A DNA stretch of 40,366 nt from a bacterium (GCA_051008875.1 JBPCXC010000144.1:1-40366), one strand, 5' to 3'; shown: positions 1 to 40,366, counted from the stretch's first letter. Program-made: numbers and translations. Notes: a model not told the origin generated them from the sequence alone.

Positions 1-2
1 GT

Positions 3-578
3 TCGGATGAGTATCGCGATGGGCGTGCCGATTCGTTGAATCGGTGGAGCGAGCGGATTGGCGGGGGGATGGCGGCAAAGTTCGGGGCGGCGGCGTTGTT
101 TCCGTTCGGCGGGCCGCCGTATCGGCCGTTCCTGCGCTGGGCGAAGAAGGCGGAGGCGTTGCGCAATTCGCAGATCGGGATGTTGATGCATCCGCGCTTC
201 GGGCTGTGGCATGCGTATCGGTTCGCACTGGCGTTCGCCGAGGCGGTGGACGGCGTTCCGCCGAGCGAAGTCGGCGCCGACCTGTGCGCCGCGTGCGCGC
301 CGAAGCCGTGCTTGTCGGCTTGCCCGGTGGGAGCGTTCAGTGCGCGCGGCTACGATGTGCAATCCTGCTTCCGTTATCTCGAAGCCAACCCGGATTCGCG
401 ATGCATGGCCGAAGGCTGCCAAGCCCGCGTCGCTTGTCCGCAAGGCGCCGAGCATCGCTATCAGCGCGACCATGCGGCTTTCCACATGCGCGCGTTCGTG
501 GTCTCGATGGCGGCGCAAGAGTTCCCCGAGAACCCGCATGTTGCCGCGCGCGACGGCGCGGCGACGCACCGAAAATAA
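3..578 (+). CDS. 4Fe-4S ferredoxin-like protein, 5' end probably lies outside the window
   Basis: The frame is open from nt 3, and the listed start at 36 is a TTG. Cys motifs fit an Fe-S protein (CAACAPKPCLSACPVGAF, then CMAEGCQARVACP). TAA stop at 576-578. Confidence 0.5.
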   Translation, partial: SDEYRDGRADSLNRWSERIGGGMAAKFGAAALFPFGGPPYRPFLRWAKKAEALRNSQIGMLMHPRFGLWHAYRFALAFAEAVDGVPPSEVGADLCAACAPKPCLSACPVGAFSARGYDVQSCFRYLEANPDSRCMAEGCQARVACPQGAEHRYQRDHAAFHMRAFVVSMAAQEFPENPHVAARDGAATHRK

Positions 579-727
579 TCTCCGCCGCGCGCAATCCAAC
601 GTTGCTCGGACGCCGTCCATCGTGGTTTAGAATCGCCGCTTTTTAAGCGACCGCGCACGAAGCAAGCCCGCACGCATCGCCGCCAACCGACGATTCGACT
701 TAAACCCACCCGACTCACATCCCGACC

Positions 728-2752
728 ATGCCCTACCAACTAGGCATCGACACTGGCGGTACCTACACCGACGCCGCGTTGATCGACGCCGAGCGCAATG
801 TCGTCGCCAAGAACAAGAGCCTGACCACGCGCTACGACTTGACCATCGGCATCGGCAACGCGCTCGAGGATTTGCCGGCGCGCGCGCTCGAGGCGGTCAA
901 CTTGGTAGCGTTGTCCACCACCTTGTCGACCAACTCGGTGGTCGAGGGACGCGGCGCGCCGGTCTCGATCTTGCTGCCCGGATACAACGCGCAGCAGATC
1001 GAGAAGAGCGGGCTCGGCGAAATCCTCGAGCGCGAGTTCATCGTCCCGCTCGCCGGTGGCCACGACGCGATCGGCGCTGAACTCGCGCCGTTGGATCTCG
1101 ACTTGGCGGCGCGCAAGATCGCCGAGCAGCAGGACTTGGTCTCGGCGTTCGCGGTCTCGGCCTTGTTCGCCACGCGCAACCCGGCGCACGAAGTCGCGCT
1201 GCGGCAACTGATCATCGAGCGCAGCGGCAAGCCGGTCGCCTGCGGCCACGAACTCGCCACCAGCCTCGGCGCGCCGCGCCGCGCGCTGACCGCGGCGTTG
1301 AACGCGCGCATGATTCTGCACATCCAAACCTTGATCGAATCGGTCGAGGCGATCCTGCGCCGACGCAACATCGCCGCGCCGTTGATGATCGTTAAGGGCG
1401 ACGGCTCGCTGGTCAACGCGCGCACCGCATTGCGCCAGCCGGTGGCGACCGTGCTGTCGGGTCCGGCGGCGAGCGTCATCGGCGCGTGCGCGCTGTCAGG
1501 CCGACGCGACGCCATCGTGGTCGACATGGGCGGCACCACCACCGACATCGCCGTGGTCGCCAACGGCAAGCCCGAACTATGCGCCGATGGCGCGCGCATC
1601 GGCGACTGGCAGCCGATGGTCGAAGCCATCCGCGTGTTCTCGGTCGGCCTCGGCGGCGACAGCGAAGTGCGCTTCAAGGGCGAACTCGCATTGTCCGGCC
1701 GACGCGTGGTGCCGATGAGTCTGTTAGCGCATCAATACCCGCAGGTGACCGCGCGGCTCGAGCAGCAGTTGCGCGAGTCGCCGAACCCGCGCCACAATCG
1801 ATTCGCGCTGCGCCTGCAGCGCAACGACGCGCTGCTGCGCCGGTTGAGCGAGACCGAGTCGCGCGCTTGGGACGCGCTCGCCGACGGGCCGATCGAACTC
1901 GATCGACTGGCCGAATCGGATCGCCCGCGACTGCGCGCGCTGGCGCGGCTGGAGCGCATGGGGCTTGCGATCTACAGCGGCTTCACGCCGTCCGACGCGA
2001 CCCATGTGCTCGGCCTGAGCGATCATTGGGACGCGCACGCGGCGACGCTGGCGGCGCGGATTTGGGCGCGGCAGATGCGCCGGTTGTACGGCTGCGGCGA
2101 CTGGGCGGAGGGCGATGCGGTCGCGCCGTGCCGGCAGGTGTTCGCGCTGGTGGTGCGCGAGATTAGTCGCACGCTGATCGAAGCCGGCTTGCATCAGCAC
2201 GACAAGTTGCGCGATTCGACCGCGCGCAACTTGACTCGCTTGCTCGGCGACATCGTGTTGGGCGACTCCAAGACCGCCGACGCATCGCCGGCGTTGTTCC
2301 AGGTCGAGTTCGCGAAGCGCTATCCGATCGTCGCCGTCGGCGGTCCGGCGCGCGACTACTTCCCCGAAGTCGCGCGGCTGTTGCGGGTCGAGTTGGATCA
2401 GCCGCCGAACGCCGAGATCGCCAACGCGGTCGGTGCCGCGCTCGGCGCGGTGGTGCAGACCGCGCACGTCACCGTGACCCAGCCGCAGTTCGGCGTGTTC
2501 TATTTGTTCCACAGCCGCCAGCCGATGGTGTTCGAGCAACTCGAACTCGCGCTCGACAAGGCGGTCGAGATCGCCGAGCGTGAAGCGACCGGCTTGGCGA
2601 AATCAGCCGGCGCCGCCGCGGTCGAAACGCGCATCGAGCGCAGCGACAATCACATCAAGCACGACATAGACGGCGAGTTGTTCGTCAGCGCGACCATCAC
2701 CGCGGTCGCCACCGGCCGACCGGACGTGCCGGAGCAGTCGCGCGTCGCGTAA
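728..2752 (+). CDS. hydantoinase/oxoprolinase-family protein (HyuA-like)
   Basis: 674 aa. The N-terminus GIDTGGTYTDAALID and the internal DMGGTTTDIAVV are the ATPase signatures of the Hydant_A_N/Hydantoinase_A family. Confidence 0.85.
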   Translation: MPYQLGIDTGGTYTDAALIDAERNVVAKNKSLTTRYDLTIGIGNALEDLPARALEAVNLVALSTTLSTNSVVEGRGAPVSILLPGYNAQQIEKSGLGEILEREFIVPLAGGHDAIGAELAPLDLDLAARKIAEQQDLVSAFAVSALFATRNPAHEVALRQLIIERSGKPVACGHELATSLGAPRRALTAALNARMILHIQTLIESVEAILRRRNIAAPLMIVKGDGSLVNARTALRQPVATVLSGPAASVIGACALSGRRDAIVVDMGGTTTDIAVVANGKPELCADGARIGDWQPMVEAIRVFSVGLGGDSEVRFKGELALSGRRVVPMSLLAHQYPQVTARLEQQLRESPNPRHNRFALRLQRNDALLRRLSETESRAWDALADGPIELDRLAESDRPRLRALARLERMGLAIYSGFTPSDATHVLGLSDHWDAHAATLAARIWARQMRRLYGCGDWAEGDAVAPCRQVFALVVREISRTLIEAGLHQHDKLRDSTARNLTRLLGDIVLGDSKTADASPALFQVEFAKRYPIVAVGGPARDYFPEVARLLRVELDQPPNAEIANAVGAALGAVVQTAHVTVTQPQFGVFYLFHSRQPMVFEQLELALDKAVEIAEREATGLAKSAGAAAVETRIERSDNHIKHDIDGELFVSATITAVATGRPDVPEQSRVA

Positions 2753-2796
2753 GTCGCGCGCTCGCGCGGGCGGCGCGTTCGCGTTTCGCGCGCGCG

Positions 2797-4878
2797 CTAA
2801 ATCTCCACATACTCGCGCTTGAACGGCACCGCGTCGGGGTCGATATCCTCGCCGAACTCGCGCGCGAAGCGATGGCCTTCGTACACCGCCGCGGCGATGG
2901 TTCCGGGCGCGAGGCAGTCGCCGATGCGCGATACCGACAACCGCGGCGACGTCGCGTTCGACTCGCGCGTCGCATCGAGGCGCGTGCGCAACGCCCGATA
3001 CAACGACTCGCGCGGGCGGCGCGCGGTCACCAGCACCGTGGTGGTCGCCTCCACCGCATGCGGCGCGTCGGCGCCGACATGGCGCAACTCGACTCGTCCG
3101 TCGCGGATGCAGTTCAGTTTGTGCTTCTCGATCAAAGTCACGCCGAGCGCGCGCAGCCGCCGCTCGATGTGTCCCTGCTCCAGCGTGTTGCGCGTCCACG
3201 CCGAGACCTCGGCGGCCGGCGTCGCCAGCGTCACGCGCGCGCCGGCGGCGACGAGTCGCTCGGCGATCACGCCGCCCATGTAATAGTGGTCGTCGTCGTA
3301 GATCAACGCATCGCCGACGACGGTCTCGCCCGCCATCACATCGTCCGGCGTGATCACGCGCACGCTATCGTCGCTTGCCATCGGCGCGCGGCGCGCGCGG
3401 CCGACGCCGTTGCGCACCCAGGTCGCGCCGACCGCGACGACGATGTGCGCGGCGCCGAGTTCTTCGGCGAAAGCGATGGCTTGCGCGGCGTCGAGTTCGC
3501 TGTGCGCGAAGCATTCCACCGCCGGCAGTCGGCGCAGTTGGCCGAGGCGATAGTCGGCGACTCGCCGCCAAGTGCTCAAGCCGGGCAGGCGACTTTCGCG
3601 CAACGTTCGTCCGCCGAACTCGTCCGCCGACTCGGCCAGGGTGACGCGGCAGCCGCGCCGGCCGAGCGACATCGCCGCCTCCAAGCCGGCCGCGCCGCCG
3701 CCGATGATCAGCACGCATTGTTCGCCGCGCGCGGCGGGGATTTTCTCGGGATGCCAGTCGCGCCGATGCTCTTCGCCCATGGTCGGATTCTGCGTGCAGC
3801 GGATCGGGCGCGCGGTCATGTCGCCGGAGACGCAGATGTTGCAGCCGATGCATTCGCGGATGTCGTCGCCACGGCCGGTTTCGATCTTGCGCGGCAGGAA
3901 CGGGTCGGCGATCGACGGCCGCGCAGCGCCGATCAGGTCGAGCACGCCGCGCTTGATCTGCGACGCCATCGCGTCCGGCGAGGTGAAGCGCCCGACGCCG
4001 ACCACCGGCTTGCCGGTGACTTGCTTGACGAACGCGGTGTATGGCTCTTGGAATCCTTCCTCGCCGAATCTCGCGCTGAGCGAATCGTTCGCCCAGTCGC
4101 TGATGTTGACGTCCCACAAGTCCGGCAACTCGGCCAGCATCTCGACCACTTCGCGTCCTTCGCGCTGCGCGCTGACGCCTTCGTCGCCGGCGAGTTCGTC
4201 CACCGCGAAACGCAACGCGACGCCGCAGCGGTCGCCGACCGCGTCCTTGGTGTCCTGCAATAACTCGCGCAGGAATCGCACGCGGTTCTCCAGACTGCCG
4301 CCGTATTCATCGCTGCGTTGATTGCGTCGGCGCGAGATGAAGTGGAACGGCAGCGCCAAGTCGTGCGCGGCGTACACATAGACGATGTCGAAGCCGATGT
4401 CGCGCGCGCGCAACGCCGCGGTGCGATGCCAGCGACGCACCGCGGCGATGTCGCGGCGAGTCATCGCGTAGGCTTGCGCCGGCTCGTCGGTGTCGAACAT
4501 CATCGCCGACACGCCCATCGCCGGCAGGCGGCTGTACAAGTTCGCCGAAGCGTGACCGTTGTGGGTAATCTCGATCGCGGCGAGCGCGCCGTGCTCATGC
4601 ACCGCGTCGGCCATCAACCGCAGCCGCTCCATGTCGCCGTCGTCCCACAAACGCCCCTCGACATACGGCGACCACTCCGAACTCGGATGGATCTCGACCT
4701 CCTGCGTCGACACCACGCCCCAGCCGCCTTCGGCCTTGAGCGCGCGCTGGCGCGCCTCGCCGCGCGGATAGAGATGCCCCATGCCGTTGCAATGCGGCAC
4801 TTGATAGAAGCGATTGCGCGTGGTCACCGGACCGATCTGCACCGGCTCGAAAAGAATGTCGTAGCGAGGATCGCGCAT
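2797..4878 (-). CDS. FMN/4Fe-4S/ADP-binding flavoprotein oxidoreductase of the trimethylamine/dimethylamine dehydrogenase - 2,4-dienoyl-CoA reductase family
   Basis: 693 aa. It has an OYE-like N-terminal barrel (FEPVQIGPVTTRNRFYQVPH), the Cys cluster CIGCNICVSGD...IRCTQNP, and then a Rossmann motif VLIIGGGAAGLEAA. Confidence 0.85.
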   Translation of the reverse strand: MRDPRYDILFEPVQIGPVTTRNRFYQVPHCNGMGHLYPRGEARQRALKAEGGWGVVSTQEVEIHPSSEWSPYVEGRLWDDGDMERLRLMADAVHEHGALAAIEITHNGHASANLYSRLPAMGVSAMMFDTDEPAQAYAMTRRDIAAVRRWHRTAALRARDIGFDIVYVYAAHDLALPFHFISRRRNQRSDEYGGSLENRVRFLRELLQDTKDAVGDRCGVALRFAVDELAGDEGVSAQREGREVVEMLAELPDLWDVNISDWANDSLSARFGEEGFQEPYTAFVKQVTGKPVVGVGRFTSPDAMASQIKRGVLDLIGAARPSIADPFLPRKIETGRGDDIRECIGCNICVSGDMTARPIRCTQNPTMGEEHRRDWHPEKIPAARGEQCVLIIGGGAAGLEAAMSLGRRGCRVTLAESADEFGGRTLRESRLPGLSTWRRVADYRLGQLRRLPAVECFAHSELDAAQAIAFAEELGAAHIVVAVGATWVRNGVGRARRAPMASDDSVRVITPDDVMAGETVVGDALIYDDDHYYMGGVIAERLVAAGARVTLATPAAEVSAWTRNTLEQGHIERRLRALGVTLIEKHKLNCIRDGRVELRHVGADAPHAVEATTTVLVTARRPRESLYRALRTRLDATRESNATSPRLSVSRIGDCLAPGTIAAAVYEGHRFAREFGEDIDPDAVPFKREYVEI

Positions 4879-33715: not shown

Positions 33716-33726
<11 letters not shown>
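31273..33726 (-). CDS. nuoG: NADH-quinone oxidoreductase subunit G
   Basis: 817 aa. Motifs [46 protein letters not shown] and [10 protein letters not shown]. Contains an acidic low-complexity insertion near the C-terminus. Confidence 0.9.
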
Positions 33727-35037
<1,311 letters not shown>

Positions 35038-35041
<4 letters not shown>

Positions 35042-35544
35042 GCGCGCTCTCCTTCTTGCGACGGTGACGACGACGGCGACAGGCTGGCGATGATCTCATC
35101 GACTCGCTGCGGCGTCAGGTCTTCGTGATAGTCGCGGCCGATCTGCATCATCGGCGCGTTGGCGCAGGCGGCGAGGCATTCGACTTCCTTCAGCGTGAAC
35201 CGACCGTCCGGCGTGGTCTCGCCGAAGTCGATGCCGAGTTTGCGCTTCAGGTGCGCGACGATCTCGTCGCAGCCGCGCAGCATGCACGAGATGTTGGTGC
35301 ACACGTTGATCTTGTGCGCGCCGACCGGCGCCAAGTCGTACATCGAATAGAACGTGGCGACTTCGTACGCGCGCACCGACGGCACGCCGATCACCTCGGC
35401 GACGCGCTCGATCAACGCGCCGCCGAGCCAGCCGTGCTCGTCCTGCGCGATGCGCAACGCCGCCAGCAACGCCGACTGCCGTCGCTGCGTCGGATACTTC
35501 GCGCATTCGCGCTCGATCTCGGCGAGGGATTCGTTAGACAACAT
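35038..35544 (-). CDS. nuoE: NADH-quinone oxidoreductase subunit E
   Basis: 168 aa from [18 protein letters not shown] (ATG at 35542-35544). 2Fe-2S motifs [11 protein letters not shown] and [16 protein letters not shown]. The ORF extension to 35613 runs into a repeat copy. Confidence 0.85.
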
Positions 35545-35600
35545 GATGGTTAAGAAAACGCAACGAGCGAGCGAGGTGGTGCATGGCGAAAAGAAAAAGA

Positions 35601-35722
35601 GATTCCCGCTCAACAGACTGCGGGAATGACGGCGGGGAGGTGGTCGCGGGAAAAAATCGCCGGGAGCGATTTTTCGCGAGCGTCAGCGAGCCCGAAGGGC
35701 GCGTATCAGGGACGATACGCGC
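35601..35722 (-). repeat. complete copy of the mosaic REP-like unit inside the nuoD-nuoE spacer
   Basis: The reverse complement reads GCGCGTATCGTCCCTGATACGCGCCCTTCGGGCTCGCTGACGCTCGCGAAAAATCGCTCCCGGCGATTTTTTCCCGCGACCACCTCCCCGCCGTCATTCCCGCAGTCTGTTGAGCGGGAATC. It is collinear with unit 4 at 22106-22228. Degenerate fragments follow at about 35723-35740 and 35840-35870. Confidence 0.8.
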
Positions 35723-35922
35723 AATGACGGCGGGCGGCGATGCGGAGGTGACCGCGGGTGGTGACGGCGGCGCAACGCGCATCGCGACCATCCAAATCCC
35801 TAGCGCAGGATTTTTTTCGTCAGGCAAGGCGCGCAACGAGGGAGCGAGGGCGCGTATAAATATACGCAACCGAGCGCGCGAGGCGGCGCAACGCCGCATG
35901 GCGGAAAAAAGACCAGCGGACA

Positions 35923-37176
35923 TCAGCGATCAATCTCTCCGAACACGATGTCTTGCGAGCCGATGATGGCGACCATGTCGGCGAGCATGTGGCCGCGGGT
36001 CATTTCGTCGAGCGCGGCCAAGTGGGCGAAGCCGGGCGCGCGGATTTTGCAGCGATAGGGTTTGTTGGCGCCGTCGGAAATGAGGTAGATGCCGAACTCG
36101 CCCTTGGGATGCTCGATCGCGGCGTATGCTTCGCCGGCGGGGATGCAGTAGCCTTCGGTGAACAACTTGAAGTGGTGGATCAGCGCTTCCATGTCGCCCT
36201 TCATCTGTTCGCGCGGCGGCGGCGCGAGTTTGCCGTGGTCGGCCATGATCTCGCCGGGGTTGGCGCGCAGCCAGTCGATGCATTGGCGGACGATGCGGTT
36301 GGACTGGCGCATCTCCTCGACGCGCACCAGGTAGCGGTCGTAGCTATCGCCGTTGACGCCGACCGGGATGTCGAAGTCCATTTCGCGATAGGCCGCGTAC
36401 GGCTGCTTCTTGCGCAAGTCCCATTCGACCCCGGAGCCGCGCAGCATCGGTCCGGAGAAGCCGAGCGCCATCGCGCGCTCCGGCTCGACCACGCCGATGC
36501 CGACGGTGCGCTGCTTCCAGATGCGGTTGTCCGACAGCAGCGTTTCGTATTCGTCCACGCAGCCGGGGAATCGCTCGGTGAAGGCTTCGATGAAGTCGAG
36601 CAGCGAGCCTTCGCGGTCGCGGTTTCGCTCGCGCGTTTCGGCTTGCGAGAAGCGCGCGTTGACCGCGTGTTGCGGCATCGCGTCGGGCAGATCGCGATAG
36701 ACTCCGCCGGGGCGATAGTAGGTGGCGTGCATGCGCGCGCCGCTGACCGCCTCGTAGCAGTCCATCAAGTCCTCGCGCTCGCGGAAGCAGTACAGGAACA
36801 CCGTCATCGCGCCGATGTCGAGCGCGTGCGCGCCGAGCCACAGGCAGTGATTCAAGATGCGCGTGATCTCGTCGAACATCACGCGGATGTACTGCGCGCG
36901 CAACGGCGGCGCGACGCCGATCATCTTCTCGATGGCGAGCACATAGGCGTGCTCGTTGCACATCATCGATACATAGTCGAGCCGATCCATATAGCCGATG
37001 CTCTGGTTGTACGGCTTCGACTCCGCCAGTTTCTCGGTGGCGCGATGCAGCAGCCCGATGTGCGGATCGCAACGCTCGATGACCTCGCCGTCCATCTCCA
37101 TGATCACGCGCAGCACGCCATGCGCGGCCGGATGCTGCGGACCGAAGTTCATCGTGTAGTTGCGGATTTCAGCCAT
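35923..37176 (-). CDS. nuoD: NADH-quinone oxidoreductase subunit D
   Basis: 417 aa. Motifs [29 protein letters not shown] and a C-terminal DIVFGEIDR. Confidence 0.9.
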
Positions 37177-37181
37177 CGTGC

Positions 37182-37874
37182 TCAGCCATCGCGCGCGTCG
37201 TCTTCGCCGCCATTCGTCGTCGGGCGATTGGCGGCGCCGAACGCATCCTCGCCGATCGTGCGCGGCACCAGTGTGCGCGGCTCGATCGTGACCGGTTGAT
37301 AGATGACTCGTCCTTGTGCCTCGTCGTAGCGCATTTCGACTTCGCCGGACAGCGGGAAGTCCTTGCGGAACGGGTGGCCGATGAAGCCGTAGTCGGTCAG
37401 CAGCCGGCGCAGGTCGGGATGGCCGTCGAACAGGATGCCGAACAAGTCGAACGCCTCGCGCTCATACCAGTTCGCCGCCGGCCACACCTCGGTCACCGAG
37501 GCGAACGACGGCGCGTCGTCGTCGCTCGACACGCGCAGCCGCAGCCGCACGTTGCGCTGCAGCGACAACAGATGATAGACCACCGCGAAACGCGTGCCAT
37601 CCTGCACCGGCTTCGCCGCCACCACCGACTCCGCCGACGGTCCGCCGATGCCGGTCTCGATCGCCTCCGACTCGCCCCACGCACCATAGTCCACGCCGCA
37701 CAGATCGATCAACGACGCGAAGCGCAGATCGGGATCGTCGCGCAATGCAACGCAGACTTCGACGATCCGCGAAGGCTCGATCTCGCACGCGACCTCGCCG
37801 AGCGCGATCGTGCGCGAAATCAACGCATCGCCGAGCAAGCCGGGCAAGCGGTCGTTGAGTTGGGATGGACTCAT
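37182..37874 (-). CDS. nuoC: NADH-quinone oxidoreductase subunit C
   Basis: 230 aa. [29 protein letters not shown] and [10 protein letters not shown] are classic 30-kDa subunit motifs. Confidence 0.9.
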
Positions 37875-37900
37875 GCGTCGATTGAATCGCGCCGGTTGAA

Positions 37901-38458
37901 TCAGGATTCGCGGCCGAGCGTGATTCGGCGCAACACATCATGCCGGTCCAGCCAGCGGTGCTTGGCGACCGCGGCGACATGGACGAGCGCCAAAGTCAGC
38001 ATGCCGTATGCCGCCCATTTATGCACCAAGGCGAGCGTGTCCTCCAAGTTGACGCCGAACATCGTTTCGCGCGGCGCGAACACCGTCGGCATCGACACGC
38101 CGAACCAGTTGACGCCGTGACCGCCGAAATCGGTCTCCGCCCAGCCGACGGCGATGATGAACGCCGGCAGCAAATACAAACCGAGATGACCGAGGGCGGC
38201 GCCGACTTGCTCCGCGCGCGGGATTTCCGGCGGCAACGACGGCGCGGAATGACGCAGCCGAAACGCGATGCGAAACACCAGCAACAACAGCAAAGTTACG
38301 CCGACCGAAATGTGCAGACTAAACAACAACTCCTCCAGCGGCGAGTCGTCCTCGACCCAAGTCGTCATCGTATAACCGCAACTCCACATGAACGCGAAGC
38401 CGAGCGCCATCAGCCAGTGCAGAGCGCGCAGCGAAATGTGATAGCGACCGGCGTCCAT
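37901..38458 (-). CDS. cytochrome b561-family di-haem membrane protein (CybB-like)
   Basis: 185 aa, four predicted transmembrane helices. Conserved His positions lie in [26 protein letters not shown] and [10 protein letters not shown], the pattern of prokaryotic cytochrome b561 (Ni_hydr_CYTB family). Confidence 0.75.
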
Positions 38459-38469
38459 TTCGATCGCGG

Positions 38470-38553
38470 CTACGCGGCGCGCGCGATGATTTGCGCGAGC
38501 AACGCATCGCCGAGCCAGTCGGGCAAGCGGTCGTTAATCTCGGTTGCGTTCAT
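38470..38553 (-). pseudogene. 27-codon fossil duplicate of the nuoC 5' end (MNATEINDRLPDWLGDALLAQIIARAA*)
   Basis: An ungapped alignment anchored on the two ATGs (38553 vs 37874) gives 56/73 identical nt by hand count, with a 33/35 core (CAACGCATCGCCGAGC.AG.CGGGCAAGCGGTCGTT). The reading frame is the same and ends in TAG 11 nt before the cytochrome b561 ATG. Confidence 0.7.
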
Positions 38554-38558
38554 GGCGG

Positions 38559-38993
38559 TCACGGGTGTTCGGCGTATTGTTCCATTTCGGTTTTGCAGTC
38601 GGCGCCATACGCGTCGAGTTCGATTACGTTTCGGTCGGGGTCGCGGATAAAGACCGCCGACATGCCGCCGAAACTGAATGCGCCGGTCAGCGCGATGCCT
38701 TTGGATTCGAGCGTTGCCTTGGCGTCGTCGAGGTCGGCGACGGTCATGGCGAAGTGCGTGATGCCGGTGTGTTTTTCGTTCGCGTCCATTAAGATGTTGG
38801 TGTCGAAATTTCCGTTCGCAGGTCCGAGCAAGTTCAAAACCACGCCGCTTGGATGACGCATAACAATCGGATGTCCTTGTTCAAACCCGTCGCTGTGTTC
38901 GTAGGCGAACCCGAGCGACCGGTAAAAATCGATGGAGCGAGTTTTTTCCCGTATGCGGATGCCGATGTGATTTACCGACCGAATGTTCAGCAT
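38559..38993 (-). CDS. VOC-superfamily (glyoxalase/bleomycin-resistance/dioxygenase fold) protein
   Basis: 144 aa. VNHIGIRIREKTRSIDFYRSLGF, ITHFAMTVADLDDA and FIRDPDRNVIELD are typical paired beta-alpha-beta-beta-beta VOC motifs. The ATG overlaps the nuoB TAA by 1 nt. GC is lower than in the flanking nuo genes by eye. Confidence 0.75.
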   Translation of the reverse strand: MLNIRSVNHIGIRIREKTRSIDFYRSLGFAYEHSDGFEQGHPIVMRHPSGVVLNLLGPANGNFDTNILMDANEKHTGITHFAMTVADLDDAKATLESKGIALTGAFSFGGMSAVFIRDPDRNVIELDAYGADCKTEMEQYAEHP

Positions 38994-39481
38994 TATGAAT
39001 TCGCCGCCCGCGCGATCGTGTTGGTCTTCTTGATCTTCTGCTGCAACTGCAGGATTCCGTAGATCAGCGCTTCGGCGGTCGGCGGGCAGCCGGGGACGTA
39101 CACATCCACCGGCACGATGCGGTCACAGCCGCGCACCACCGAGTAGGAGTAGTGGTAGTAGCCGCCGCCGTTGGCGCACGAGCCCATCGAGATGACCCAG
39201 CGCGGCTCGGCCATCTGGTCGTACACGCGGCGCAGCGCCGGCGCCATCTTGTTGGTCAAGGTGCCGGCGACGATCATCACGTCGGACTGGCGCGGGCTCG
39301 GGCGGAACATCACGCCGAAGCGGTCGAGGTCGTAGCGCGACGCGCCGGCCTGCATCATCTCGACCGCGCAGCAGGCGAGGCCGAACGACATCGGCCACAT
39401 CGAGCCGGTGCGCGCCCAGTTGATCAGTTCGTCCAGCCGCGCGGTGGCGAAGCCTTCGCGCAAGGTGCCTTCAAGCGCCAT
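38993..39481 (-). CDS. nuoB: NADH-quinone oxidoreductase subunit B
   Basis: 162 aa. Motifs [55 protein letters not shown]. Confidence 0.9.
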
Positions 39482-39485
39482 CGAA

Positions 39486-39842
39486 TCACTCCCACTCGAG
39501 CGCGCCCTTCTTCCATTCGTAGATGAACCCCACCACCAGCACGGCGAGGAAGATCATCATCGCCCAGAAGCCGAACGCGCCGATTTCATCCAGCGCGATC
39601 GCCCACGGGAACAGGAACGCGATCTCGAGATCGAAAATAATGAACAGGATCGCCACCAAGTAGTAGCGAACGTCGAACTTCATGCGCGAATCCTCGAACG
39701 CCTCGAAGCCGCATTCATACGGCGACAACTTGTCGTCATACGGATTGCTCGGCGCCAACGCCTTGCCGGCGGCGATCGCCACCGCGCCGATGCCGAGGCC
39801 GACCGCGATGAACAGCAGGATCGGGAAATAGTCGGTCAGCAT
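39486..39842 (-). CDS. nuoA: NADH-quinone oxidoreductase subunit A
   Basis: 118 aa from [15 protein letters not shown] (ATG at 39840-39842). Motifs [12 protein letters not shown] and [12 protein letters not shown]. The upstream ORF extension is unlikely to be coding. Confidence 0.9.
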
Positions 39843-39971: not shown

Positions 39972-40000
39972 ATTCTATTGGCCGCCGCCGCTTGCGTCAA
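39972..40000 (-). promoter_or_regulatory. sigma70-like promoter candidate for the nuo operon
   Basis: The minus strand reads TTGACG (40000-39995), a 17-nt spacer, then TAGAAT (39977-39972), about 130 nt upstream of the nuoA ATG. Confidence 0.5.
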
Positions 40001-40097
40001 GGATTCGGGCGCACCGATTGCGCCGCGCGCCGCGGAAGTGAGCGCGCCCTTCGGACGCGCTACGCTAACGGAATAAACGCGCCGCCACCAGCGGTGC

Positions 40098-40211
40098 CAT
40101 TCCCGCAAAAACCATCCCCCGCCGTCATTCCCGCAGTTTGTTGAGCGGGAATCCATCGCTCGCGGCAGCGAGTGAGGCAGGGCGAAGCCCTGCTGGCTTT
40201 TGATGCGAGCG
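40098..40211 (+). repeat. partial copy of the mosaic repeat (CATTCCCGC hairpin module plus the GAGTGAGGCAG..GCTTTTGATGCG module)
   Basis: 40120-40154 CGCCGTCATTCCCGCAGTTTGTTGAGCGGGAATCC and the following ..GCGAGTGAGGCAGGGCGAAGCCCTGCTGGCTTTTGATGCGAGCG are collinear with 22195-22280. Confidence 0.75.
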
Positions 40212-40314
40212 AAAATCTCTTTTCGCCTTTCAGCATACCCCGCGCTCACCCTTCGCCATCACCAAAAGAAAGCAAGCCGTTGGCTTGCATCACTTGCTTG
40301 CGCAAGTGTGGATT

Positions 40315-40366
40315 GTTCGTATCGTCCCTGATACTCACCCTACGGGCTCGCTTCGCTCGCGAAAAA
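40315..40366 (+). repeat. 5' part of another REP-like unit, cut by the window end
   Basis: GTTCGTATCGTCCCTGATACTCACCCTACGGGCTCGCTTCGCTCGCGAAAAA matches the start of units 3 and 4 at 22005 and 22106. Confidence 0.7.

Follow-up and report, generated by a model that had tools for sequence, protein, structure and literature searches.

How did a second nuoC start come to stand in front of a cytochrome b561 gene in the middle of a complex I operon? The question is raised by a stretch of bacterial DNA (GCA_051008875.1 JBPCXC010000144.1:1-40366), analyzed here over its whole length of 40,366 nt (the window; coordinates are counted from its first letter). The nuo operon, a VOC/glyoxalase-family gene, the cytochrome b561 gene, and the element in question all lie on the minus strand. 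This element, which we call the stub, is an open reading frame (ORF) of 27 codons plus stop (38470–38553), found both as an ORF and by repeat detection, that runs from ATG to TAG and encodes MNATEINDRLPDWLGDALLAQIIARAA. It follows the VOC gene (38559–38993, 144 amino acids; Pfam PF00903/PF13669) and precedes the cytochrome b561 gene (37901–38458, 185 amino acids; PF01292, 2e-22), an apparently intact second cargo gene, after which comes full-length nuoC (37182–37874, 230 amino acids; PF00329, 1.5e-45). The stub appears to be not a gene but a scar of recombination, a kind of feature that is known in general. In the reading we favor, to which we assign a probability of roughly 0.6, two alternative nuoB-X-nuoC versions of the locus were stacked by microhomology-mediated recombination.

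The resemblance between the stub and nuoC is real. Positions 38481–38553 align without gaps to the 5' end of nuoC (37802–37874), with 56 of 73 nucleotides identical, as an earlier sequence-only reading of this DNA had counted by hand. That reading also described a core of 33/35 identities; the strong core holds, and a recount gives 34/36, spelled AACGACCGCTTGCCCG(A/G)CT(G/T)GCTCGGCGATGCGTTG. An independent repeat search returned an 80-nt direct repeat of 76% identity between 37796–37875 and 38475–38554, the former copy covering the 5' 79 nt of nuoC (37796–37874). Chance similarity is ruled out by the shuffled control that the sequence-only reading had called for: the Smith-Waterman score is 33.5, as compared with 9.8 ± 1.2 (maximum 14.5) for 500 dinucleotide shuffles (z = 19). 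Apart from the nuoC 5' end, nothing in the 40-kb window resembles the stub. Translation reproduces the claim that both segments are anchored on an ATG and share a reading frame, and the stub TAG (38470–38472) does lie 11 nt upstream of the cytochrome ATG (38456–38458). As in truncated gene remnants, the similarity to nuoC is significant and partial, and the stub sits where intact nuoC starts in relatives.

Sister loci indicate which of the two starts occupies the original place. Among 185,579 species genomes, the closest relatives of nuoC come from sponge-associated metagenome-assembled genomes of Candidatus Poriferihabitaceae (about 70% amino acid identity), and neither a VOC nor a cytochrome b561 gene was found near nuoC in the 80 nuoC loci retrieved (flanks of ≤5 kb on either side). 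A homologue of the VOC protein with 89% identity is encoded on an ENA metagenome contig (L081, from ERZ28747376), where the order is nuoA-nuoB-(two small ORFs)-VOC-nuoC-nuoD and a cytochrome gene is absent. Two further loci from the same metagenome, L177 and L178, also have VOC followed by nuoC without the cytochrome. In all three the VOC stop is joined to GTGACCGCCATGAAC, the ATG of which is the nuoC start. The identical 15-mer occurs in the window (38548–38562), where its ATG is that of the stub and its GTG overlaps the VOC TGA. Because this junction is identical in the three sister loci, the stub is the nuoC start at its ancestral place and not a stray duplicate; the sequence-only reading, which took it for a duplicate, was right about the repeat but not about the stray copy. 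The complete downstream nuoC is the copy in a new context, following the cytochrome stop and a 26-nt spacer without a Shine-Dalgarno (SD) sequence (37875–37900). At the VOC end, the window (38553–38570, ..CCCGTGACCGCCATG) is 7 nt shorter than L081 (6445–6475; ..CCCGGATGAAGTGACCGCCATG in the L081 group), so that the VOC stop is now the TGA within GTGACC and overlaps an in-frame stub GTG in a GTGA start/stop overlap.

The VOC gene is 81% identical to that of L081 at the nucleotide level (89% in amino acids), about as diverged as nuoA, nuoB, nuoD, and nuoF (83–87% in nucleotides), which implies that the VOC-nuoC arrangement predates the split of the two lineages. The VOC gene is thus the older cargo, common to L081, L177, and L178, and the cytochrome gene an addition or part of another allele. 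G+C content at third codon positions (GC3) in the window is 0.70 for VOC, 0.81 for the cytochrome gene, and 0.84–0.93 for the nuo genes; in L081 it is 0.55 for VOC (L081 6028–6462) versus 0.74–0.83 for its nuo neighbors. Since the VOC GC3 is low in both genomes and yet the gene is as old as the lineage split, it is an old acquisition that has been incompletely ameliorated. A recent import of VOC and stub from an L081-like donor is unsupported, as nuoB, VOC, nuoD, and nuoF are uniformly 81–87% identical to L081 in nucleotides; against such an import, window nuoB has the highest GC3 in the operon (0.93), and VOC has a higher GC3 in the window than in L081. Homologues of VOC at about 70% identity were also seen in unrelated contexts, such as SecA-BolA-VOC in L082 and L083.

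The stub probably consists of two parts. Codons 1–21 (38491–38553) are clearly nuoC, with 48/63 nucleotides identical to the resident gene and a tblastn match of E = 7e-14 to NuoC N-termini. From codon 23 (38470–38487) the stub reads ATC GCG CGC GCC GCG TAG, that is, I-A-R-A-A-stop. Resident nuoC has ATC GCG CTC GGC GAG GTC (IALGEV) at this place, with three differences in the three codons past ATC GCG, all at second positions, and no similarity thereafter. The 3' end of resident nuoB, ..ACG ATC GCG CGG GCG GCG AAT TCA TAA (TIARAANS-stop), differs from the stub tail just twice, each time in a third codon position. Within the clade, NuoB terminates in TIAR plus zero to two residues: TIARSA in L001, TIAREA in a second stub described below (L094), and TIAR in most others. 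An "IA" followed by R and a stop within three codons is found in about 1% of cases in a six-frame translation of the window. The sequence-only reading held that a nuoC copy extends to the TAG; the 27 codons and the TAG stand, but the last codons look like a NuoB ending, IARAA-stop, instead.

A possible point of joining can be named by direct reading of the sequence. Codons 21–25 of nuoC (37802–37812) and the 3' end of nuoB (39010–39020, codons ..N-T-I-A-R) have the 11-mer CACGATCGCGC in common, with its codons in phase. The stub keeps just the ATCGCGC core of this match, preceded by the codon ATC and not ACG. Similarity to nuoC through ATCGCGC, as claimed before, is therefore real, but the stretch is common to nuoC and nuoB and is not specific to nuoC. 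We lean toward the stub being an in-frame nuoC'::nuoB' chimera joined within ATCGCGC, with nuoC homology probably ending around codons 22–24 and a nuoB-derived side of only five or six codons. The TAG and the 11-nt spacer that follows it (CCGCGATCGAA, 38459–38469) would then represent the original nuoB-to-cytochrome junction of the second version of the locus.

The scar could have arisen as follows. There would have been two versions of the nuoB-nuoC interval, nuoB-VOC-nuoC and nuoB-cytb561-nuoC, and a single illegitimate join, guided by microhomology, would have fused the start of one version's nuoC to the end of the other version's nuoB. This could plausibly have happened by homology-facilitated illegitimate recombination (HFIR), with DNA taken up from a related symbiont. 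The product would carry ~22 codons of nuoC, continue in frame into the last five or six codons and the stop of nuoB, and reach the cytochrome gene after 11 nt and a complete nuoC after that. Because the microhomology is in phase, such a chimera reads through to the nuoB stop.

The relationships of the stub to different nuoC alleles bear on this reading. Over codons 1–21, the stub matches resident nuoC at 48/63 nucleotides, and the orthologues of L178, L177, L081, and L090 at 50/63, 49/63, 47/63, and 47/63, respectively; resident nuoC matches L178 at 55/63. The stub is thus as far from resident nuoC as are the orthologues of other species, which answers the check on the closest nuoC that the sequence-only reading had proposed: it is no nearer the resident gene than sister orthologues (47–50/63). 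Its replacements are mostly conservative (Q5E, L6I, I19L, and S20A), as among functional NuoC N-termini, and only the radical L13W hits a conserved position. This pattern is consistent with an allele that formerly functioned in a different lineage. Gene conversion holding the 36-nt core identical was considered and dropped, as the core is 33/36 identical to L178 versus 34/36 between the two copies in the window. No recombination breakpoint was found within NuoC by sliding identity against six relatives.

An analogous chimera occurs in L094, a 1.94-Mb ENA contig with the order nuoB–N6_N4 methyltransferase–39-amino acid ORF–two small ORFs–nuoC. The 39-amino acid ORF (2372–2491) consists of 18 codons of nuoC and the last 21 codons of nuoB; over 69 nt it matches the 3' end of the local nuoB at 91% identity, and over 27 nt the local nuoC at 93%. 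The two parts join at GCGCTGA, which is in phase in both nuoC (D-A-L-I) and nuoB (E-A-L-I). The nuoC part begins MNQS.., as in the L081 group and L093, as compared with MTNRTH.. in resident nuoC, and the nuoB part ends ..TIAREA as compared with ..TIARIASPK in resident nuoB. Since both parts are unlike the resident genes, two different alleles were evidently joined, and the ORF reads as an unmistakable nuoC'::nuoB' chimera. It sits between a first cargo block (the methyltransferase) and a second (the two small ORFs), with its stop 7 nt before the next cargo ATG. By analogy, the L094 event would be of the kind proposed for the window, with a longer nuoB part.

L094 also contains a 150-nt repeat, 96% identical, present after the methyltransferase gene and again just upstream of the real nuoC (2157–2383 and 3326–3474); it has no Rfam match and a fold z-score of -1.6. 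On both sides of the first copy lies a 36-nt direct repeat (CGGCATATTTCAG..ACGCATGAAYCAATCC) made of the methyltransferase 3' end and the first four to five nuoC codons, which seems to amount to a second, shorter nuoC-start stub. A tblastn match in L029 proved to be a triosephosphate isomerase gene, and self-BLAST of L001–L003, L081, L090, L092, L093, L177, and L178 revealed no further stubs. The window stub itself is known only in copies from the same strain (L085 and L086).

Several points weigh against the stacking of two versions and have to be set beside its rivals. The nuoB-like tail is only five or six codons long; its DNA (ATCGCGCGCGCCGCG) is of low complexity, with similar strings throughout the GC-rich window; its nucleotides fit nuoB (13/15) barely better than nuoC (12/15); and the chimera was recognized post hoc. 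At codon 7 (AAC) and codon 10 (TTG) the stub agrees with resident nuoC and not with the L081 group, a weak link between the two. No nuoB-cytb561-nuoC version was seen in 80 JGI loci, in three further contexts of cytochrome homologues, or in the flanks of the 80 genome nuoC loci. Either version may have been the resident one, with the other incoming; the cytochrome GC3 is near that of the operon, and the VOC GC3 is lower. The two shared codons, the almost equal fit of the tail, and the missing donor allele in the collections searched can also be taken, along with the direct repeats that flank the insert, to favor a duplication within the lineage, which we regard as possible though the less probable course. 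Here the cytochrome gene would have entered the 5' end of resident nuoC with a duplication of 80–100 nt, by Campbell-type single crossover with a small circular DNA that bore a 5' piece of nuoC, or by replication template switching; the upstream copy would have drifted as a pseudogene, and the last stub codons and stop would be decayed nuoC or insert DNA. This course is hard to reconcile with a stub no closer to resident nuoC than to orthologues, and with about 24% divergence that has brought neither frameshift nor internal stop and mostly conservative replacements. The three differences of the tail from nuoC, all at second positions, would also have to spell a NuoB ending with a stop where NuoB is expected, and the L094 analogue is clearly a chimera of two alleles. 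Insertion of a transposon with target-site duplication, for which identical repeats of 2–14 bp are expected, was rejected, since the repeat is ~80 nt and 76% identical. Neither a transposase nor inverted repeats were found flanking the cytochrome gene, which is the only gene between the repeat copies. The sequence-only reading had seen in the stub the scar of the event that placed the cytochrome gene here, either insertion with target duplication or recombination with a foreign nuo locus. The scar holds; of its two options the foreign locus fits better, given the length and divergence of the repeat, the lack of transposase and terminal inverted repeats, the equal distances to orthologues, and the L094 scar. 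Misassembly is a far weaker contender still. Co-existing strain variants, VOC-nuoC and cytb561-nuoC, could in principle have been misjoined through their common nuoC 5' sequence, and sister variants with different cargo do share one metagenome (L081, L177, and L178). However, an independent Logan assembly from another run (L085, SRR33949963) reproduces the order of VOC 3' end, stub, cytochrome gene, and first 25 nt of nuoC base for base (100% identity over 751 nt aligned, window 37850–38600), which rules out an assembly chimera. Exact agreement between the two copies never extends beyond 16 nt, which would not mislead an assembler working at k=31, and the copies differ at 17 of 73 positions, unlike a collapsed repeat.

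A different proposal, compatible with either origin, is that selection has kept the stub as a leader ORF, so that ribosomes arriving from VOC terminate and reinitiate at the cytochrome ATG. The geometry for termination-reinitiation exists: the frame is open and in phase, and its stop lies 11 nt before a start without an SD sequence. The absence of an SD sequence, claimed earlier, is borne out by a duplex energy with the anti-SD of +0.1 kcal/mol upstream of the cytochrome ATG. The stub is probably translated, as sister genomes express the essential nuoC from this same start context. The cytochrome gene is probably co-transcribed, since no promoter-like or terminator-like site was found in the stub-cytochrome interval, and the L094 stub similarly ends 7 nt before the next cargo ATG. 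These points speak for a leader. However, nuoA, nuoC, and nuoD equally lack SD sequences (nuoB and nuoF have them), so that a missing SD says little; the 156-nt region around the stub is not unusually structured (fold z = +0.79 versus shuffles); the open frame is accounted for by in-phase microhomology alone; 27 stop-free codons are unremarkable in GC-rich DNA; and the existence of same-strain copies only leaves no conservation signal. A leader ORF under selection, although plausible in mechanism, is thus unlikely. A structured RNA or riboswitch was rejected on the same fold score and on the lack of any Rfam match in the stub region. What the stacking of two versions does predict is that translation begun at the old nuoC start, the context of which is unaltered, would end at what had been the nuoB stop, with the cytochrome ATG 11 nt farther on; the relic may passively keep a relay from VOC through the stub to the cytochrome gene.

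The stub lies in a hot spot for cargo. Measured from the NuoB ..TIAR motif to nuoC codon 1 in 82 loci with both genes, the median distance is 25 nt, and 75 of the loci stay at ≤150 nt. Distances above 300 nt occur only in L001, L081, L093, L094, L177, and L178, all of which belong to the sponge-symbiont clade. The interval holds VOC and cytochrome b561 in the window, a 97-amino acid membrane ORF in L001, two small ORFs (orf85 and orf124) and VOC in L081, a 196-amino acid ORF (orf196) and VOC in L178, GmrSD in L093, and a methyltransferase, the stub, and two ORFs in L094; L002 has nothing there, and three methyltransferase paralogues stand in front of nuoC in L090. The nuoB|nuoC junction has the character of a hot spot in that two conserved genes surround different whole-gene cassettes in each genome. 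Other occupied junctions are nuoC|nuoD in L177, nuoE|nuoF in L092, nuoD|nuoE in L094 (an Eco57I-type methyltransferase), and the position after nuoE in L178 (a C5 methylase and a NOV_C protein). Cargo in the clade also includes Gln-synt_C and small lipoprotein-like ORFs, and all of it is co-oriented with the nuo operon. In L090, the three tandem N6_N4 methyltransferase paralogues occupy 1–3505 and stand immediately before nuoC. The first gene is truncated by the locus end; its 3' 546 nt match the corresponding end of the third at 99.6% identity, and the 33 nt that precede the nuoC ATG are found again at the boundary of the first and second genes. These repeats point to a recent tandem duplication of cargo.

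The cytochrome b561 protein is a full-length member of its family, scoring 80.3 bits against PF01292 (cut-off 30.1 bits) over profile positions 1–177 of 179. It aligns over its whole length with the structure of Escherichia coli CybB (PDB 5OC0; E = 9e-11), and the family-invariant residues, histidines included, are present. Like CybB it belongs to PF01292, but it is only distantly related and falls below the NCBIfam cut-off of the E. coli CybB equivalog NF008566 (48.9 versus 170 bits). CybB oxidizes superoxide and reduces quinone, acting as a superoxide:ubiquinone oxidoreductase (PMC11869295). By analogy, activity of this CybB-like cytochrome and, from its place directly before nuoC, a functional link to complex I are possible, as speculation. 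Among 5.8 billion proteins the best homologues are 66% identical, several of them with alphaproteobacterial names. Neither nuo genes nor VOC were found near cytochrome homologues in three contexts that were looked up or in the 80 JGI metagenome loci, and a first metagenome scan made with a single protein gave nothing either. Close homologues (55–65%) are concentrated in many MKWU01 contigs and in Ga0209543, Ga0209544, and Ga0209754; these JGI loci (L097–L176) have no nuo genes in the flanks retrieved (≤2.5 kb on each side).

The remainder of the operon is as follows. Upstream of the cargo are nuoA (39486–39842, from the ORF list and layout) and nuoB (38993–39481, 162 amino acids; PF01058, 1.2e-28), which has 93% amino acid identity to NuoB of L081 and the stop of which overlaps the VOC start (TAATG). 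Downstream of nuoC the layout gives nuoD (35923–37176), nuoE (about 35038–35544), and nuoF (33716–35041), and beyond these, on the same strand, ORFs with the size and order expected for nuoG-N and, judged by the same features, without visible insertions. Upstream of nuoA there is a sigma-70-like match, TTGACG-17-TAGAAT (10/12; 39972–40000, minus strand), a candidate promoter for the whole operon, cargo included. Hairpin modules resembling repetitive extragenic palindromic (REP) elements lie in inverted orientation in the nuoD|nuoE spacer (35565–35725), which they expand to about 375 nt, and upstream of nuoA (40040–40352). One of these modules, GTCATTCCCGCAGTNTGTTGAGCGGGAATC, occurs at 35601–35630 on the minus strand and at 40124–40153 on the plus strand, and a second, of 41 nt, is 88% complementary between the two regions.

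The stub itself would be a by-product, a scar of an ordinary kind at an unusual site, and it is of less note than the hot spot in which it lies. What the stub appears to show is how foreign genes pile up at nuoB|nuoC in this bacterial group. Together with L094, it suggests that cargo is added serially within a conserved respiratory operon by joins of a nuoC start to a nuoB end within brief stretches of in-phase microhomology, with no mobile-element machinery visible. This would explain how the operon gains foreign genes, including restriction-modification and defense genes, while keeping functional copies of both flanking genes, and it provides annotators with a signature: short chimeric ORFs composed of the ends of neighboring genes. 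A broader generalization is more doubtful than selection for the stub as a leader. It holds that in sponge-symbiont-like gammaproteobacteria nuo junctions are landing pads at which accessory and defense genes (methyltransferases, GmrSD, VOC, and cytochrome b561) are stacked time and again by in-phase microhomology recombination between nuoC 5' and nuoB 3' ends, with the chimeric mini-ORFs retained as ribosome relays. If this were true, translational coupling along the nuo operon would be preserved by these mini-ORFs.

Several known systems are comparable. Translational coupling by termination-reinitiation occurs between adjacent operon genes, such as trpB-trpA. As in coupling of that type, the upstream stop here lies within ~10 nt of a downstream start without an SD sequence; in contrast, the ORF upstream would be a chimera without function, put together from the ends of two genes, on which translation of the cytochrome gene might depend. 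In Paracoccus denitrificans and Rhodobacter capsulatus, according to the literature of the 1990s, the nqo/nuo operons contain unidentified reading frames (URFs). These are non-complex-I genes that lie between nuo genes and are co-transcribed, as appears to be the case here. Unlike the URFs, which are fixed in their species, the cargo described here varies among close relatives and includes restriction-modification and defense genes, and stacking scars are visible in the present clade.

Minimal mobile elements, or integration hot spots flanked by core genes, were reportedly described by Saunders and Snyder in 2002 and by Snyder and co-workers in 2007. By the definition quoted in PMC3082526, these consist of conserved flanking genes with different cassettes between them. 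Similarly, nuoB and nuoC flank different whole-gene cassettes across genomes, with no integrase or transposase present. The site here differs in being within the operon of an essential-type respiratory enzyme and in having all its cargo co-oriented, and its cassettes are stacked rather than swapped, leaving chimeric remnants of the flanks.

The closest parallel for the joins themselves is HFIR, which is said to have been observed during natural transformation by de Vries and Wackernagel and by Prudhomme et al., both in 2002. In HFIR, foreign DNA lies beside a homologous anchor, its other end is joined at a microhomology, and truncated gene fragments are left behind; PMC6382021, which summarizes this work, gives 3–10 bp for the junction microhomologies. 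The junction at GCGCTGA in L094 is alike in this respect, and the probable one at ATCGCGC, within the longer 11-mer, in the window would be so too. Unlike in HFIR, the joins would link neighboring genes of one operon (nuoC 5' with nuoB 3'), such that versions of the locus would be stacked rather than an unrelated insert acquired.

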